NCBI GenBank assembly: GCA_016708435.1
Contig: JADJFV010000035.1
Coordinates: forward strand, 128,001-192,000
Length of the DNA: 64,000 nt
Direction: 5' to 3'
Source of the DNA: Leptospiraceae bacterium
Lineage (GTDB): Bacteria > Spirochaetota > Leptospiria > Leptospirales > Leptospiraceae
The notes below the pieces were generated by a model. It had not been told where the DNA came from, searched no databases, and saw only the letters and a program-made list of their open reading frames with translations. Numbering within the stretch: position 1 is the first letter of the stretch; the number at the start of each line of letters is the position of its first letter. This document shows, in pieces, positions 2,886 to 52,726 of this stretch. The position numbers and the translations under genes are program-made.

Positions 2886-3233
2886 TCATTCAATCTTATT
2901 GGATTTACGAAATAGCAAATATAACAGTGGACCAAATGAACCTGCTGCCAATGTAATGATGATCCATGGCCACGGGTTGCGATTCGTTGCCTTTGCATCA
3001 CGCCACATCCATACCATGAAAATAGTAAGTGCTATGACTAAATCTACCCATACTTGTATTCCTCCAAAGTTTTTGAATTGATGCTCGAAAATTCCTCGAA
3101 CACCATTTTGCCAAACAGCCAATGCTGTTAGAATAGAGAACAAAAGCGTTACTACAAGTAAGACTATTTTGATCAGTCCATTCCTATTTGTTTCGATGTT
3201 CATTCTATTATTCTCAGTTGATTTAGTTTCCAT
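2886..3233 (-). CDS. Small integral membrane protein (3 predicted TM helices), co-oriented with and overlapping the TetR gene
   Basis: 115 aa ORF with hydrophobic stretches and a W-rich motif WPWIIITL. It overlaps the upstream TetR ORF by 11 nt, suggesting an operon. Confidence 0.4.
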   Translation of the reverse strand: METKSTENNRMNIETNRNGLIKIVLLVVTLLFSILTALAVWQNGVRGIFEHQFKNFGGIQVWVDLVIALTIFMVWMWRDAKATNRNPWPWIIITLAAGSFGPLLYLLFRKSNKIE

Positions 3234-3849
3234 TGTTTTTCTCCTTTTTGATTGTTTTTATTTTAAGTGTTGGTTGCTCTTTCATGAAGCCATTAATAAG
3301 TTCTGTGAATGCTTTATTCGTTTCATAAATTCTGTCAGTGTCTTTTGTTGCGAGCCAATCGAGCATTAGCCCCCGATAGAAAGAAAGTATCATCGTTGCA
3401 TAAATTTTGGATTTCTTTCCATACTTTAGAGAAATCATGCTTTCGATTTCTATAATCCAATTGTGAAGAACTTCATTGAAAAATAATTTATATTTTTCCG
3501 TATCTCTTAATGCTCTAACGTATAACTCAAGAAATAATAGCAATGGCTTTTTGTTCTTATCGAAATATATCGATTCAATGAAAATCTCGGAAACTTCTAC
3601 GAAGGTTTTATTCGGGTTCTCATGGAAGATTTTTTTTAAAGTGCTTTTATGCTTTGTGCTTAAATGAATGAAGACTGAATGTATTAGATTATCAAACGAT
3701 TCGAAGTAATAGATAAGCATCCGCGCGCTAGTTTTTATTTCTTTTGCGATGTCTCTCAGGCTAAGATTGTTTAACCCCTTTTTGGACAGGACTGAAATGA
3801 TTTCTTCTAAAATTTCTTCACTAGCTTGGTTTTCAGGTTTCCTACTCAT
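3223..3849 (-). CDS. TetR/AcrR family transcriptional regulator
   Basis: N-terminal HTH 'LSLRDIAKEIKTSARMLIYYFESFDNL' typical of TetR_N; about 200 aa length. Confidence 0.8.
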   Translation of the reverse strand: MSRKPENQASEEILEEIISVLSKKGLNNLSLRDIAKEIKTSARMLIYYFESFDNLIHSVFIHLSTKHKSTLKKIFHENPNKTFVEVSEIFIESIYFDKNKKPLLLFLELYVRALRDTEKYKLFFNEVLHNWIIEIESMISLKYGKKSKIYATMILSFYRGLMLDWLATKDTDRIYETNKAFTELINGFMKEQPTLKIKTIKKEKNNGN

Positions 3850-3851
3850 AT

Positions 3852-3879
3852 AATAAATGTAACAAGTGTTACATTTATT
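3852..3879. promoter_or_regulatory. 28-bp perfect palindrome (AATAAATGTAACA-AG-TGTTACATTTATT) 3 bp upstream of the TetR start; putative autoregulatory operator
   Basis: Read directly from the sequence. TetR-family operators are typically palindromes overlapping their own promoter. Confidence 0.5.
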
Positions 3880-4184
3880 GTCAATAGATTTAAAAAAAAA
3901 TCTTTACTTTTGCCTTTAGGTTCATAGGCTTGGATTGCCAATCCAGAGAGTGAAGTTCGGGTGTTGCGCACTATCTCTATTGATTAAGTGCTTGCGCATA
4001 CTATTTATTAAACGCTAGTGCGCCGGGCTCTCAACTATTGTCAATTTTTTGAAGAGACAAAAAATTGACACCGTTTCGATCCCTAACACTTAGTGATTTG
4101 AAAAACAAGTTTGTATAACTTGGACAGGCTTTTTAGTTTTTTTCTTGATTGTTTCTTAGTTGTAAGGAATTTTTAGTTGAATTG

Positions 4185-4754: not shown

Positions 4755-5474
4755 TTATAAATTTAAATTCCTCTCAGCATTTCTCCAAGCTTCGAGATAA
4801 TATTTATAACGTTTTCTTTTTTTATCTAAGTCTTCCCCGAAACTTCTGTCATCGGTAATATAGATTTTATCAACTGCAATTTCTGCGAGGCTAAGATTGT
4901 TTTTCCTCGCGTATGCCCAGAACTCCATTGGAAATGCATATCCATTCTCGGTAAATGTATAATTCTTTAAACTAGATGTGGCATATCGCTTGAAGCCGCA
5001 AAATGCATCAGTAATATACCAACTATATTTTTTATTGATAGCTGTGGTTATACGGCGATTAATCTCTACTCGATCTTCCGGTGGGACTATGCCGATTGAT
5101 TTTGATTTAGGAGCATAACGACTTCCACTCACCACATCTATCTTTCGGTTGTAATTAGCGAAACGCTCTAGATCTTTAGGTTGATGCTGTTCATCACAAT
5201 CCATTGTAATGAGATACGGATAATTCTTATTAATCCCAAATTCAAATCCATAGATCAAACTAGAACCATAGCCCGCATTTTTTTTGTGATGCACATAAAC
5301 GTAAGGATGTTCTTTTTGAATTGTATCTAAGACAAAATTTGTCCCATCGGCGGAGCCATCATCCACAAAAAGAATATCTGCATAGTCGAGACAAGCGGCT
5401 ATTGTGCGTATTGCGACATCGTAGACAGTTGTCTTTTCATTGTAAACAGGGATGATGACTAGAAATTCTTTCAT
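4755..5474 (-). CDS. Family 2 glycosyltransferase (DPM1 / dolichol-phosphate mannosyltransferase-like)
   Basis: N-terminal 'IIPVYNE' and 'VDDGSADGT' DxD-type GT-A motifs; 239 aa. Confidence 0.8.
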   Translation of the reverse strand: MKEFLVIIPVYNEKTTVYDVAIRTIAACLDYADILFVDDGSADGTNFVLDTIQKEHPYVYVHHKKNAGYGSSLIYGFEFGINKNYPYLITMDCDEQHQPKDLERFANYNRKIDVVSGSRYAPKSKSIGIVPPEDRVEINRRITTAINKKYSWYITDAFCGFKRYATSSLKNYTFTENGYAFPMEFWAYARKNNLSLAEIAVDKIYITDDRSFGEDLDKKRKRYKYYLEAWRNAERNLNL

Positions 5475-5486
5475 GGTTAATCGGTT

Positions 5487-5540
5487 TGGTACGTTTGTTG
5501 TAGGTGACGCATATATGCGTCACCTACAACAAACGTACCA
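5487..5540. repeat. 52-54 bp perfect palindrome (26-bp arms, no spacer) lying between the ilvD stop and the GT2 start
   Basis: GGTACGTTTGTTGTAGGTGACGCATAT|ATATGCGTCACCTACAACAAACGTACC read directly. It lies 14 nt after the ilvD stop and 13 nt before the GT2 ATG. It is GC-richer than its flanks. Confidence 0.9.
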
Positions 5541-5553
5541 CCCACAACGATTT

Positions 5554-7236
5554 TTACAGCAAATTCGTAATAGCCCCGTTCGATGCAGATTGAACAAGAT
5601 GCGCATACTTTGCTAAAACCCCTGATTTGTAGCGGGGCTCTGGTTTTTTCCAGGCTTTTAAACGCTTTGCAATTTCTTCGTCTGAAAGTTTTATTTCTAG
5701 TAAGTTTTTGTTGGCGTCTATCGTTACGGTATCACCTTCTTGGACAATCGCAATCGGTCCGCCATCAAATGCTTCTGGAGTGATATGACCTACTACTAGA
5801 CCATGCGTTCCGCCACTGAAGCGGCCATCTGTCATTAGCCCCACATCTTCTCCAAGACCTTTACCTATAATGGCAGCGGTAACAGCAAGCATTTCACGCA
5901 TTCCAGGACCGCCCTTTGGACCTTCGTAGCGGATAATGATTACATCTCCCTTTTTGATTTTGTCTGCCATGATTGCTTGAAAGCAAGCATCTTCCGAGTC
6001 AAACACCTTGGCAGACCCTGTAATATCAAATTTATGCAAACCAGAAATTTTTGCAACGGCACCATCGGGAGCAAGGTTTCCTTTTAGAATAACAAGCGGA
6101 CCGGAGGCAAACAGTGGTTTGTCTTTAGAGCGCACTATGATTTGGTCTTTTGCGAGGTTTGGCATATCTTTTAGATTCTCAGCTATTGTCTTTCCGGTTA
6201 CAGTTAAACAATCTCCATGGAGCATTCCATCGGCTAACATCTGTTTCATCACACCGTGAACGCCGCCTACTTTATCCAAGTCAAACATCGCATATTTTCC
6301 ACCTGGCTTTAAATCAGCCAAGTGTGGGGTAACTTTGCTTATCCGGTCAAAATCTTCTAAGCTAAGTCCAACGCCCATTTCTTTTGCAATTGCGATTAAG
6401 TGGAGAACTGCGTTAGTAGATCCACCTAGAACTAAAACTATACGGATAGCATTTTCGAATGCTTTTTTCGTGAGGATCATTTTGGGAGTAATATTCTTTT
6501 TAATTAATTCCTGAATTGCAATTCCCGCTTCGTAGCAATCGTTCGCCTTACGCGCACTAATCGCAGGCATGGATGCAGAACCCGGTAGACTCATCCCGAG
6601 TGCCTCTATAGCGGATGACATGGTGTTAGCCGTATACATCCCACCACAACTTCCAGCACCTGGAATCGCAGTTTGTTCAACGCGTAAAAATTCTTCTCGT
6701 GTAATTGTTCCAGCGTTAAATTTTCCAACTGCTTCAAATACAGAAACGATATCCACATCATGACCGTCGCAAGTCCCAGGCATAATCGAACCACCATAAA
6801 CGAAAATAGACGGAATATCAAGTCTTGCGAGAGCCATTAAACAACCTGGCATATTTTTATCGCACCCGCCGATTGCGACCACTCCATCAAAACGCATTGC
6901 ATTAGTCACCACTTCAATCGAATCCGCGATTACTTCTCGTGAGGGTAATGAATAATGCATCCCTTCATGACCCATAGAAATTCCATCGGACACAGTGATT
7001 GTATTAAAAATTTGTGGCATCCCACCGGCTCGGCGGATACCTTCTTTTACCTTCTCAGCTAGTTTGTTGACGTGCGAATTACAAGGTGTAATCTCTGACC
7101 AAGTAGATGCGACACCAATCATTGGCTTCTCGAAATCTTCGTCTATAAATCCTACTGCTCGGAGCATAGCACGGTTAGGCGCTCTCATGTCTCCACTGGT
7201 TGTCATACTGCTTCTGCGTTTTAAATTTTCTGCCAT
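5554..7236 (-). CDS. ilvD: Dihydroxy-acid dehydratase
   Basis: 560 aa with the conserved IlvD/EDD motifs 'CDKNMPG', 'SGGTHG', 'GGSTNAVLH', 'TDGRFSGG' and the Fe-S cysteine ligands. Confidence 0.95.
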
Positions 7237-9084: not shown

Positions 9085-9313
9085 TGTTATACCGCTATTT
9101 TTGAGTCAATCTTTTTTACAATTTTGCAAGCTAACATAAACTTAGCCCGCGGCAGCGAACCCACCGTTAGGTGTAAACCAATCCTCAGCGCGGGGAACGC
9201 TGACATATCATTTCTTTTGCGAAGAAATGATAATAGCGATAGCGTAAGGTGAGAAAATAAGAGTTTACGAAACCCGTTGCTTTGTGTTAAAGTGTAGAAA
9301 CAGGAGAATTACA

Positions 9314-9606
9314 ATGCCTGTTACGATTGAAAATATTAAAATATATGAAGTCTCAGAAATTGCAAAAAAATTAAAAGCAAAAACAAAAGACATTGAAAAT
9401 TTAGTTATCAAGAAAAAACTAAACGGACAAAAAATCGGAAACAAATATTATGTTTCCGAAAATAGCCAAAATATTTTTTTAACAGTAACTCAAATATTCT
9501 TTCTGGTTGGGAAAATTTTCATAACGAAGCACTGAAAGCAAGAAAAGAACATGAATCAGGGAAAGACAAAGGAAAAACTATGAAAGAAGTTTTTGGAAAT
9601 GATTGA
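9314..9606 (+). pseudogene. Antitoxin-like gene with an N-terminal excisionase/MerR-type HTH, frameshifted inside a T7 run
   Basis: HTH 'IYEVSEIAKKLKAKTKDIENLVIKKKLNGQKIGNKYYV'. The -1 frame after the T7 run at 9474-9480 continues '...SGWENFHNEALKARKEHESGKDKGKTMKEVFGND*', ending 2 nt before the toxin ATG. Confidence 0.45.
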
Positions 9607-9608
9607 CA

Positions 9609-9885
9609 ATGTATACTATTCTCATTAAAAAAAGAGCAGAAAAATTTATTTCCAAAGCTGAGAAGAATTTAAAAATATTACTCAAAAGCCATTTAGATAA
9701 TTTATCAGAAAATCCATTTATTGGGGAAGAATTGAAGAAAGATAAAAAAAGGAATTTTATCTTTCCATTTTAAATACAATAAAACGGATTATAGAATTGC
9801 CTACTTAATTGAACGAAATGAAATTCATATTTTACCTATTGGCACGAGAGAAAACTTTTACAAAGAATTAACTCAAATACTTTAA
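9609..9885 (+). pseudogene. RelE/ParE-family toxin gene, frameshifted in an A7 run
   Basis: Frame 0 gives 'MYTILIKKRAEKFISKAEKNLKILLKSHLDNLSENPFIGEELKKDKK'. After the A7 run at 9744-9750 the +1 frame gives 'GILSFHFKYNKTDYRIAYLIERNEIHILPIGTRENFYKELTQIL', a RelE/ParE fold signature (basic YR-I-Y core). Deleting one A restores a single 91-aa ORF. Confidence 0.5.
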
Positions 9886-9915
9886 TCAATCGCTCTAACT
9901 ATTTGCAATCTTGCT

Positions 9916-17730: not shown

Positions 17731-17766
17731 TAAAAAAGTGCTCTGTGTTTTTTTCTCACAGAGCAC
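17731..17766 (-). terminator. Hairpin terminator between convergent genes (GTGCTCTGTG-loop-CACAGAGCAC, A-run on the plus side)
   Basis: 10-bp perfect stem with a T-rich loop. The A9 run on the plus strand equals a U-run after the stem for the minus-strand gene. Confidence 0.5.
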
Positions 17767-36745: not shown

Positions 36746-37612
36746 TTACTTCTTTGTGAAATTTTTCTTTTGTAAGTTTTTAATTTGGTGAATGGAAAGA
36801 CCGGTGACTTCGGAAATAAAATCAGGCTTAAGATTTTTAGAAAGCATGGTCTGAGCAATCTCAATATTTCTTTGTTCAATTGCTTCTTCTTTTGATTTTT
36901 CGAGTTGGTATTCCGTGCGGGCTGCATAGTCTCTTTCTGTTTTGAGCCATGCTTCGTAGTATTCACGAGATTTCTTATCATGGGAAACAAACTTCAATTC
37001 GTCTAAAGCTTTTTTAATTTTAGGATTTTTCTTTTTTAAAGTCTTCATTTGTTCCCCCTTTAATTTTGTTGCTTCTTTTAGCAGATAAACCCAGTCATCC
37101 AAAGGACTTTGCGATGAATGGAAAGTCTTTATATATTTAGGTAATTCTATGATGTAGATGTTTAAATTATCTGTCAACAGAATTTCAGGCTTGTTTTTAT
37201 CAGAAATCTGAAAATACCATAGGAATTTTTCTTCTTTCGGGAATATTTCAAAGTTCACAAAATTGAAAGAATAAATTCTAGGAAGCTCTGAGTATTTTTG
37301 ACCCTTCGAAATTGACTTTGAATATAGTTTCGCCCAATAGTATAGAATTCTCTGGGAGAAGAATTTTTGATAAGAGGCTTGCATTTCGATCAGGAATTTA
37401 TTACCAGTCGCATCAACTGCTTTAATATCCAACACAATTACTTTTTCTGTATTCCTATCTTTTGGAATTTCTGGATTCAAAACTTTAAGGCTAACAATGC
37501 GTTTCTCCTTTTGGAATTCTGGAAAGGAATTCAGAAGATTCATCAATACATCTTCATGCTTGGAAAAAACTGCCTTAAATACGAAATCATTTGTAAGAGG
37601 AAGGAGCTTCAT
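36746..37612 (-). CDS. Rpn/YhgA-like recombination-promoting nuclease / putative transposase (PD-(D/E)XK)
   Basis: N-terminal 'LTNDFVFKAVF' (family hallmark) and the nuclease core; 288 aa. Confidence 0.65.
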   Translation of the reverse strand: MKLLPLTNDFVFKAVFSKHEDVLMNLLNSFPEFQKEKRIVSLKVLNPEIPKDRNTEKVIVLDIKAVDATGNKFLIEMQASYQKFFSQRILYYWAKLYSKSISKGQKYSELPRIYSFNFVNFEIFPKEEKFLWYFQISDKNKPEILLTDNLNIYIIELPKYIKTFHSSQSPLDDWVYLLKEATKLKGEQMKTLKKKNPKIKKALDELKFVSHDKKSREYYEAWLKTERDYAARTEYQLEKSKEEAIEQRNIEIAQTMLSKNLKPDFISEVTGLSIHQIKNLQKKNFTKK

Positions 37613-38139
37613 TCTGCGCAGAATTATAGCATTGCGGCTAATGGAAATACTATTTTGAAAAAAGTTTGGTTTATTACATAGTTTGACAAGTTTTTGTCGC
37701 TAGAGCGTAATCTGATTCAATATACTTCCGATAGCCTGTCGTTTACTCCTCTTCGGTCTACCTGCGCTTATTTCTACGGTGATTTTGCGGTGTAAGTTGG
37801 GGTGGGTAACCGATGTTAGACCGAAGCTATAAGCGTAGCTAGACCGGGGGAGAGTAAAAGGAAGCTGAAAGGAATCCCTTTCTAGATACTCGAAGAAATG
37901 AAATTCATTGGCTCGAATTTTTATGCTTTTTATTGATTTTGTTCATTTCCTCGACTATGATAAATATCATAGTCGAGAAAATTTCAAATTAATAAAAAAA
38001 TCTTTGACTTTTTTGAAAACCATTACTCTAACTACTAACACAGATTTATAGAGGAGACGAATTTTTCAATTCAGGTAACCTATAAATCAAAAAGCATACA
38101 TATAAATATCGATTAAAAACAAGAGGATGGAAAATTACT

Positions 38140-38715
38140 ATGAACAGAGAGTTAATAAATATTAAAGGAACACATGAAAAAGTAGAATTTGAAAGTATTT
38201 TAAATGTGCACGGAAAGAACGAAGAAGGACAGACTCCTCTTCATATGGCGGCAACTCGCGGTCATATTGAGTTAGTTGCTTCGCTAATTGAAAGAGGAGC
38301 TGATCTAAATCCTAAGAGTAATTTTGGTTATACCCCGCTTCATTATGCTGCCAACCAAAGTGGTGTTGATATTGCAAAGCTTCTAATCGATAATGGTGCC
38401 GATGTGAATGCAAAAAGCGATTTCGAATATACTCCCCTTCATTATGCAGCACATCATGGCAAGACAGAGATTGTTAAACTTCTTATTGAGAAGGGAGCTA
38501 CTATCAGCAGGCAGAATATGTTTGGTTTCACTCCTCTTCATTATGCTGCAACACATGGACGAGTCGAAGCCGCTAAAGTTCTGGTTGAAAAAGGTGCTGC
38601 TTTGCATCTCGAAGATGAAGATGGGCATACTGCATTGGAACTTGCCAAAAAATCTGGTTATGCCCAAATCGCTGAAATGATTGAACGCACCATGAAGAGA
38701 TCTAAGCTTATTTGA
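38140..38715 (+). CDS. Ankyrin-repeat protein (paralog B)
   Basis: Five ANK repeats, about 55 % identical to 29013..29660 over the repeats and the C-terminal tail. Confidence 0.85.
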   Translation: MNRELINIKGTHEKVEFESILNVHGKNEEGQTPLHMAATRGHIELVASLIERGADLNPKSNFGYTPLHYAANQSGVDIAKLLIDNGADVNAKSDFEYTPLHYAAHHGKTEIVKLLIEKGATISRQNMFGFTPLHYAATHGRVEAAKVLVEKGAALHLEDEDGHTALELAKKSGYAQIAEMIERTMKRSKLI

Positions 38716-52681: not shown

Positions 52682-52726
52682 AAAAAAAAATCCCTCTCTA
52701 TCCAATGGATAAAGAGGGATTGTTCA
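52682..52726 (-). terminator. Rho-independent terminator for the Thr-rich protein gene
   Basis: About 14-bp stem (ATCCCTCTCTATCCA / TGGATAAAGAGGGAT) preceded on the plus strand by A9, which is U9 after the stem on the minus strand. Confidence 0.55.

Follow-up and report, generated by a model that had tools for sequence, protein, structure and literature searches.

In Escherichia coli, the repetitive extragenic palindromic (REP) element REP325, located between the tandem genes yjdM and yjdN, acts both as a partial terminator and as a stabiliser of the upstream mRNA (bioRxiv 10.64898/2026.03.23.713779). At the DNA level, template switching perfects quasipalindromes in E. coli (PMC7202029), one template-switch event can create a whole perfect hairpin (PMC10710096), and in a survey of 118,019 genomes the perfect inverted repeats of bacteria mostly had 4-bp spacers (PMC13155455). 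Here the analysis concerned a 64,000-nt stretch of the genome of an uncultured Leptospiraceae bacterium (assembly GCA_016708435.1, contig JADJFV010000035.1, positions 128,001 to 192,000; hereafter the window), in which a perfect 54-bp palindrome lies between ilvD and a family-2 glycosyltransferase gene (GT2); its zero-spacer form is atypical because of the 4-bp spacers that prevail among bacterial perfect inverted repeats. Across related lineages the palindrome has persisted at this one site through species-level divergence, and it is base-pair complementarity, not sequence, that is conserved there. The palindrome is most likely an intercistronic or 3' untranslated region stem-loop of an unusual kind, apparently single-copy, very long, perfect and spacerless, with structure-preserving turnover and outward growth.

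The two arms (5487-5513 and 5514-5540; Table 1) are 27 nt each and 100% complementary with 0 nt between them, in agreement with the perfect palindrome that the original prediction had placed in the ilvD-GT2 gap. Its description as statistically striking was also borne out, as the palindrome is the longest inverted repeat of the window, the longest perfect stems in 30 composition-preserving shuffles were 9-13 bp versus 27 bp in the palindrome, and the chance expectation for such palindromes in 64 kb is about 3e-11. The measurements given for the gap needed correction: rather than precisely filling it, the palindrome takes up 54 of the 79 bases of the spacer, read on the strand encoding both genes, and the distances to the ilvD stop and the GT2 start are 13 nt (5541-5553) and 12 nt (5475-5486) instead of 14 and 13 nt. 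The lack of a U-tract was confirmed from the letters after the stem, where the mRNA reads AAACCGAUUAACCAUG and contains no Shine-Dalgarno-like motif either. A consensus scan of the spacer gave no promoter-like or terminator-like match, and a promoter inside the palindrome was rejected since the scan had no match there. The linker after ilvD is long enough that a ribosome terminating at the stop codon should leave the stem wound. The relatives of GT2 are called dolichol-phosphate mannosyltransferase in some sources, and a DUF1564 gene comes after GT2.

The palindrome is real and not an assembly artefact, since nine assemblies made independently from close relatives, with contigs of 747 kb and 154 kb among them, have the identical 54-mer. 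The exact GT2 protein was found on eight contigs from independent assemblies, and every one of them that spans the spacer, the 747-kb contig included, has the identical 54-mer; the 154-kb contig that also has it is from a near-identical strain. Among the related loci (L numbers), L005 shows an exact inverted fold-back (1407-2268) with 431 nt on each side of the dyad, beyond which it runs into the GT2 of a different strain, only 89% identical, making it a chimera of two strains, and the L007 and L008 contigs stop inside the palindrome. The fold-back and the contig breaks match the effects of a real palindrome on de Bruijn-graph assemblers and are consequences of the palindrome, not its cause. 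One practical consequence of the palindrome is that assemblies of short metagenomic reads visibly break or fold back on themselves at the ilvD-GT2 locus. A separate observation is that GCA_016718635.1 has the locus on two contigs, L001 (JADKCW010000035.1) and L129 (JADKCW010000010.1), whose GT2 sequences are 100% and 99% identical to that of the window, which would mean that the bin mixes strains or that the locus is duplicated. In the L129 copy 2 nt are deleted at the palindrome edge, and gene calling missed the ilvD of this copy, possibly owing to sequencing indels.

The ilvD-GT2 pair is kept in a group of related lineages (GT2 84-95% identical, ilvD 94-98%), while the length of the spacer is highly variable at 43, 79, 94, 125-127, 149 or 267 nt. 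The lineages sharing the 54-bp form make up type A. L124 and L125, whose GT2 is 95% identical and whose third-codon divergence of 21-24% is roughly at species level, have a different perfect 54-mer, TGAAATGTTTGTTGTAGGTGACGCATA/TATGCGTCACCTACAACAAACATTTCA, in which the six positions differing from the window form three exactly compensated pairs (chance probability about 4e-6). The abundant lineage of L097 and L130-138, at 27-32% third-codon divergence, has three compensated pairs together with three mismatches, leaving a perfect stem of 21 bp. A U.G intermediate was seen in L140, and in L127 a G-to-T change in the flank stretches the palindrome to 28+28 (about 3% by chance). Across the six distinct type-A variants, pairing holds in 96.3% of cells and both partners have changed in five pairs, a covariation score reached by 0 of 500 shuffles, and slid registers are only 25-44% paired. 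The spacer changes by 10-13% between these lineages versus 21-32% at third codon positions. The original prediction had held that a lack both of further copies and of conservation in relatives would mark the palindrome as sporadic; no further copies were found (see below), but the conservation in relatives is clear.

Palindromes were also found at the same site in lineages with other spacer architectures. Type B (L011 and L012) has a perfect 30-mer, CGTAGAGACGCGATT/AATCGCGTCTCTACG, and type F (L147 and L148) a perfect spacerless 50-mer, ATGCCTAGTATGTAAGGACTTGATT/AATCAAGTCCTTACATACTAGGCAT, whereas type E (L139) has an imperfect long hairpin with the centre GGGAACGCATA/TATGCGTTCCC that is matched by the type-A covariance model at E = 4e-5. 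Types A, B, E and F are in register and have in common a 28-bp core of the GTAG-N20-CTAC type, with GTA(G/A) beginning 14 nt from the dyad centre. The core halves share 12 of 14 positions between A and E, 10 of 14 between B and F and 8 of 14 between E and B. In an ungapped core alignment, both partners have changed in nine of the 14 pairs and pairing holds in 97.6% of cells, which 0 of 500 shuffles reach. Homology of the core across the four types appears likely because they occupy the same site in the same register and are linked by this chain of similarity (8-12 of 14). Outside the core, the arms of types A and F have grown outward by 13 bp and 11 bp, respectively, of unrelated sequence: the outer 13 bp of type A are absent from the 30-bp form (L011), and the 11-bp extension in the 50-bp form (L147) is unrelated to them.

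The core is absent from the remaining two types. Type C (L009, L094-096) has a GC-rich nested hairpin directly after ilvD, and in type D (L010), with the 267-nt spacer, a U-rich stretch comes after an ordinary stem-loop. A strong hairpin is present in all six spacer architectures of the ilvD-GT2 junction, with z between -4.3 and -10.4. The hairpin is absent where GT2 has no ilvD upstream, as in L141-146, with a 16-nt gap after a peptidase gene (z +1.35), and in L013, with 40 nt after an upstream gene without an ilvD match (z -0.8). As further detail on type C, the element is about 95 nt long, with GCCCCTCTCCTT-A-AAGGAGAGGGGC enclosed by the outer inverted repeat TTGACCTCACCCC...GGGGAGAGGTCA, and its GC-richness contrasts with a genome that is otherwise AT-rich (L009 540-645, L094 380-480, L095 2350-2455, and also L096), in lineages with a GT2 90-97% identical to that of palindrome-bearing lineages; none was found in the window. 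Types C and F both open with TAATATCTCTACG right after the ilvD stop (L147 2404-2433, L095 2342-2371), and TCTCTACG, which follows the stop in types C and F, is also the outer end of the type-B right arm, ...CGCGTCTCTACG (L011 2955-3000). The common TCTCTACG would fit an old palindrome-associated deletion, yet type F has its own complete core.

The RNA of the spacer is predicted to fold at -49.3 kcal/mol (z = -10.4) into a 25-bp stem closed by a 4-nt loop. An RNA stem-loop is favoured because the pairing is conserved directly 3' of ilvD and the spacer is too short and featureless for an obvious promoter. An intrinsic terminator has a GC-rich stem-loop with a U-tract within a few nt; here the stem is followed by AAACCGAUUAACC, and the site is skipped by a terminator scan. 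Canonical U-tract terminators with folds of about -26 kcal/mol are found elsewhere in the window, at 17738-17766 and around 52.7 kb, and the other hairpins between tandem genes are weak (-7 to -18 kcal/mol), so that the palindrome is an extreme outlier, and the idea that it represents the usual terminator style of the genome was rejected. The two canonical terminators (17738-17766 and about 52,690-52,722) lie between convergent genes, and their GC-rich stems, 10-15 bp long, are bordered by a T-run at one end and an A-run at the opposite end.

The best explanation, with a probability of about one half, is a locus-bound intercistronic stem-loop that would have arisen from a hairpin at the 3' end of ilvD, been perfected and lengthened by template switching, and now serve as an attenuator and stabiliser or as an RNase III site. 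Under this explanation ilvD and GT2 would be at least partly co-transcribed, and a stem of about 25 bp in the transcript (about -45 to -49 kcal/mol) would attenuate read-through into GT2 and block 3'-to-5' exonucleases, with the result that the ilvD mRNA would be stabilised and expressed above the functionally unrelated GT2. The stem may in addition be cut by RNase III, because it offers a perfect duplex of about 25 bp, exceeding the uninterrupted double-stranded RNA of at least 20 bp (about two turns) associated with this enzyme; a perfect duplex of more than 20 bp would be a natural substrate, and cutting would physically separate the two cistrons. An intercistronic stabiliser or processing site, one of the roles raised in the original prediction, is therefore the best fit to the spacer directly after ilvD, the compensated substitutions, and the hairpin at every ilvD-GT2 junction examined with none at the two other GT2 loci, the function itself being proposed from these patterns. 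A second suggested role, translational occlusion of the GT2 start, fared less well: direct occlusion is unlikely because the stem includes neither the GT2 ATG nor the preceding 12 nt, and most of these bases are left unpaired in the predicted fold.

The perfect symmetry without a spacer and the arms' outward growth would have come about through template switching as DNA is replicated (quasipalindrome correction), in which one arm is copied from the other; exact compensation, a near-absence of G.U pairs and a self-complementary centre would follow from this. Almost no G.U pairs occur among the variants, the folding energy has no sense/antisense bias, the centre-most pair is always complementary and the centre is self-complementary (ATAT or TTAA) in all core variants; these features are signatures of DNA-level copying from one arm to the other. 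Template switching likewise fits the extension by one base in L127 and the independent growth of types A and F. As a strand test for RNA-level selection, the G.U pairs and the sense and antisense folding energies showed no bias either way and were uninformative. A trace of the sequences from which the arms might have been copied gave suggestive similarities only (such as TCTCTACG) and no unambiguous palindrome-free ancestor.

Several points weigh against the stem-loop explanation. Selection on an RNA stem requires neither 27 perfect Watson-Crick pairs nor a self-complementary loop and would tolerate G.U pairs, so that the conserved property looks like dyad symmetry of the DNA and is accounted for only by adding template switching. 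The invariant GTA/TAC and the A/T at +/-3 in all core variants could instead reflect a binding protein that recognises a particular sequence. The sample is limited to about six type-A variants and four core types; the cores were picked as palindromes, and the core covariation statistics hold only if the cores are homologous. The comparison of loci covered just two GT2 loci lacking an upstream ilvD, and every ilvD locus compared had GT2 downstream. The proposals of co-transcription, of attenuation and exonuclease blocking, and of cleavage by RNase III all derive from sequence.

Alternative origins and roles were weighed against copy number, position and pattern of change. Within the window, a search with the arms, exact or with up to three mismatches, returned just the two arms, a motif search found no repeat of the core motif, and a covariance model from five variants, run with filters off, matched only the palindrome site (next best match E = 0.29). 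Stems of at least 19 bp in about 700 kb of fetched related loci occurred at the orthologous site only. The arm 20-mer ACGTTTGTTGTAGGTGACGC had 0 exact matches in species-representative genomes, from which the species of the window is absent (best GT2 match 62%), and 0 in JGI metagenomes, though the L124 variant, one base off this 20-mer, is in JGI data and would have been matched by a pattern starting two bases further in. The central 20-mer GTGACGCATATATGCGTCAC gave 0 matches in viral contigs, and plasmid and phage collections gave no blastn match. As far as searched, which for its own genome means the 64-kb window, the palindrome is a single-copy, locus-bound element and not a mobile repeat. 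It is accordingly highly improbable that it belongs to a dispersed family of REP/REPIN-like mobile palindromes or miniature inverted-repeat transposable elements (MITEs) and was inserted between ilvD and GT2, as the original prediction had allowed. GTAG is the tetranucleotide that heads classical REPs, and the 28-bp core also starts with GTAG (GTAA in L147), but here GTAG pairs with CTAC inside the perfect stem and the whole element is 54 bp. A hypervariable spacer holding other hairpin elements in some lineages, such as the GC-rich type C, would suit insertion. Against insertion, besides the copy number, a target-site duplication is lacking (no direct repeat is common to ...TTGTGGG and AACCGAT..., the two flanks), and no transposase-like, RAYT-like or other mobile-element gene occurs among the 16 neighbouring open reading frames scanned (within about 10 kb). 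A known curated RNA family was rejected too, as Rfam 15 gave no match at gathering thresholds and, at relaxed E-values, only generic hairpins resembling microRNA precursors, far below threshold. A factor-independent terminator of ilvD transcription working without a U-tract is very unlikely. The palindrome is in the usual place of a terminator hairpin, 13 nt after the stop codon, where L010 has its ordinary hairpin and U-rich stretch, and reduced dependence of termination on the U-tract has been argued from a data set that includes Leptospira interrogans (PMC8355165), an article that has Czyz et al., a point on the opposite side, among its own references. The same genome uses canonical U-tract terminators, however, and full termination would silence GT2 because this gene begins 12 nt past the stem with no promoter-like match between.

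The remaining alternatives concern the DNA itself. The palindrome could be a functionless mutational by-product, that is, a short inverted repeat repeatedly perfected and lengthened by template switching, in which compensation reflects arm copying and not selection. The Watson-Crick symmetry through the centre, the scarcity of G.U pairs, the lack of strand bias, the outward growth with unrelated sequence in different lineages, the three mismatches tolerated in the abundant L097 lineage and the documented mechanism (PMC7202029, PMC10710096) all agree with such an origin. A functionless by-product is nevertheless unlikely: the palindrome has persisted at one site through 21-39% third-codon divergence although long palindromes are deletion-prone, another strong hairpin takes its place in the core-less types C and D while GT2 behind other genes has none, and the spacer changes less than third codon positions do. 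Quite unlikely is an element acting as double-stranded DNA, either a dyad site for a dimeric protein or a cruciform, for example a site for a GT2 regulator or a recombination boundary between the conserved ilvD and a variable region starting at GT2. Such a site, and with it the protein-binding site named among the roles in the original prediction, gains some weight from GTA...TAC, invariant in all core types at a constant distance of 14 nt from the dyad centre, from the A/T at +/-3, equally invariant, and from the centre, whose lasting self-complementarity would be needless in an RNA loop. A boundary would also accommodate the mosaic divergence of the locus, with the window and L147 differing by 3-15% in ilvD and 17-22% in GT2, L097 and L009 having different spacer types while only 3-5% apart in GT2, and gene content past GT2 differing between lineages. 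Yet nine of the 14 core positions differ from lineage to lineage, more than is usual in an operator, some lineages have non-homologous hairpins (types C and D) in place of the core, and the site is not accompanied by any regulator or recombinase gene; the TetR gene close by has a palindrome of its own (3852-3879), and GT2 evolves faster than ilvD anyway, explaining part of the jump in divergence. A link of the palindrome to the DUF1564 or TetR genes was rejected because the palindrome lineages of types B and F have neither gene. A related and similarly doubtful possibility is a previously undescribed 28-bp dyad core, single-copy and vertically inherited, whose symmetry would be actively maintained at the DNA level and which, growing repeatedly into spacerless palindromes of 50-54 bp, would act in the form of duplex DNA or a cruciform instead of an RNA hairpin, for example as a recombination hotspot or a boundary recognised by a protein where a conserved gene adjoins a variable region.

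Table 1. Features of the ilvD-GT2 junction in the window, and the core halves compared between spacer types (a slash marks the dyad centre).
Feature	Coordinates	Strand	Sequence and remarks
Perfect spacerless palindrome, 54 bp (27+27)	5487..5540	-	mRNA sense UGGUACGUUUGUUGUAGGUGACGCAUA/UAUGCGUCACCUACAACAAACGUACCA
28-bp core	5500..5527	-	GTAGGTGACGCATA/TATGCGTCACCTAC; in register with the palindromes of related lineages; GTAG starts 14 nt from the dyad centre
Outer 13 bp, one arm (partner 5528-5540)	5487..5499	-	Lineage-specific outward extension of the core
Outer 13 bp, other arm	5528..5540	-	
13-nt linker, ilvD stop codon to stem base	5541..5553	-	mRNA sense AAAAUCGUUGUGG
12-nt linker, stem to GT2 ATG	5475..5486	-	AACCGAUUAACC; no Shine-Dalgarno-like motif, no U-tract
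ilvD, dihydroxy-acid dehydratase, 560 aa, upstream gene	5554..7236	-	Pfam ILVD_EDD_N, E 4e-137; ILV_EDD_C, E 1.8e-73
GT2, family-2 glycosyltransferase, 239 aa, downstream gene	4755..5474	-	Pfam Glycos_transf_2
Core half, type A			GTAGGTGACGCATA
Core half, type E			GTAGGGAACGCATA
Core half, type B			GTAGAGACGCGATT
Core half, type F			GTAAGGACTTGATT

Other palindromes and hairpins were noted in the window and in related loci. A palindrome of 13+13 nt, AATAAATGTAACA-nn-TGTTACATTTATT (3852-3879), lies directly against the 5' end of the TetR-family gene (minus strand, 3849..3223) and looks like the regulator's own operator; it is also present in L001 (5597-5622), L004 (2957-2988) and L127 (3098-3125), with conserved arms and a varying central dinucleotide (AG, CT, AA, TT). 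Downstream of the DUF1564 gene there is a hairpin, TGTCAATTTTTTG-6 nt-CAAAAAATTGACA (4039-4070), with no U-tract after it; more than 20 related loci have the same stem but differ in the loop (TCTCTT, TCCCTT, TTTCTT, TCTTTT). A variant of this hairpin with a compensated inner stem, TGTCAATAAATCG aagaga CGATTTATTGACA, is located in the ilvD-GT2 spacer of L139 (1442-1473) with the loop orientation reversed. A near-spacerless palindrome of 13+13 nt, CTCGACTATGATA-aa-TATCATAGTCGAG (37950-37977), possibly an operator, lies within a 527-nt region between divergent open reading frames (37612..36746, minus strand; 38140..38715, plus strand). The 831-nt AT-rich intergenic region at 9085-9915 (GC about 0.29 over 8-10 kb) is a local minimum of the cumulative GC skew and contains three perfect hairpins with stems of 9-11 bp (9206-9232, 9435-9459 and 9737-9765). 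Past GT2, the lineages variously have DUF1564-TetR, cation efflux, AcrB, defence-like AAA/AIPR or PilZ genes, and the mosaic divergence among L097, L009, L095, L147 and the window suggests recombination breakpoints at or near the spacer.

If the stem-loop explanation is true, the locus would provide a clean bacterial example of a regulatory hairpin conserved purely by structure while its sequence turns over across species-level divergence. Template switching would then both perfect and lengthen a hairpin, giving perfect palindromes of 50-54 bp that are otherwise rare and unstable in bacterial chromosomes, and a REP-type attenuator and stabiliser role could be filled by a single-copy, home-grown hairpin.

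Among known systems, an integron attC site, an imperfect palindrome with R''/L''-L'/R' boxes found beside cassette arrays and an intI gene, was rejected, as the pairing is perfect and leaves no extrahelical bases and the neighbours are housekeeping-type genes with no integrase. A protelomerase target of the telRL type, similar in length and perfection (about 40-56 bp) and placed at the junction from which a linear replicon gets its hairpin ends, was rejected as well, as the site is internal to the 747-kb and 154-kb contigs, between conserved chromosomal genes and in many samples, and the viral and phage collections gave no match. In common with canonical intrinsic terminators, the hairpin comes immediately past a stop codon, but it has no U-tract, its stem is 2-3 times that of the window's own terminators and the next gene begins 12 nt past the stem. 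The RNase III hairpins of phage T7 early mRNA, rpsO-pnp and lambda sib resemble it in having a double-stranded RNA stem of more than 20 bp between cistrons or 3' of a gene, which could give the messages on either side separate fates, a comparison based on stem length. Known RNase III processing sites usually carry internal loops or bulges that direct cleavage. The products of quasipalindrome template switching (the Ripley model, E. coli thyA and lacZ reporters, and primate hairpins born by template-switch mutation) share with the palindrome exact arm complementarity, changes in both arms and stepwise lengthening (PMC7202029, PMC10710096); those were seen in reporters or inferred in eukaryotic genomes, whereas here several lineages that differ at species level have apparently kept the product at a single intergenic site of a bacterial genome. 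With the REPs of E. coli, such as REP325 in yjdMN and the classical malE-malF stabiliser, the palindrome shares a stable hairpin without a U-tract between same-strand genes, after the upstream stop, and a proposed dual effect of limiting read-through and protecting the upstream mRNA from 3' exonucleases. However, REPs are imperfect, about 35 nt long, present in hundreds of copies and linked to RAYT genes, whereas the palindrome between ilvD and GT2 is 54 bp, perfect, spacerless, single-copy as far as searched and vertically inherited at one locus.

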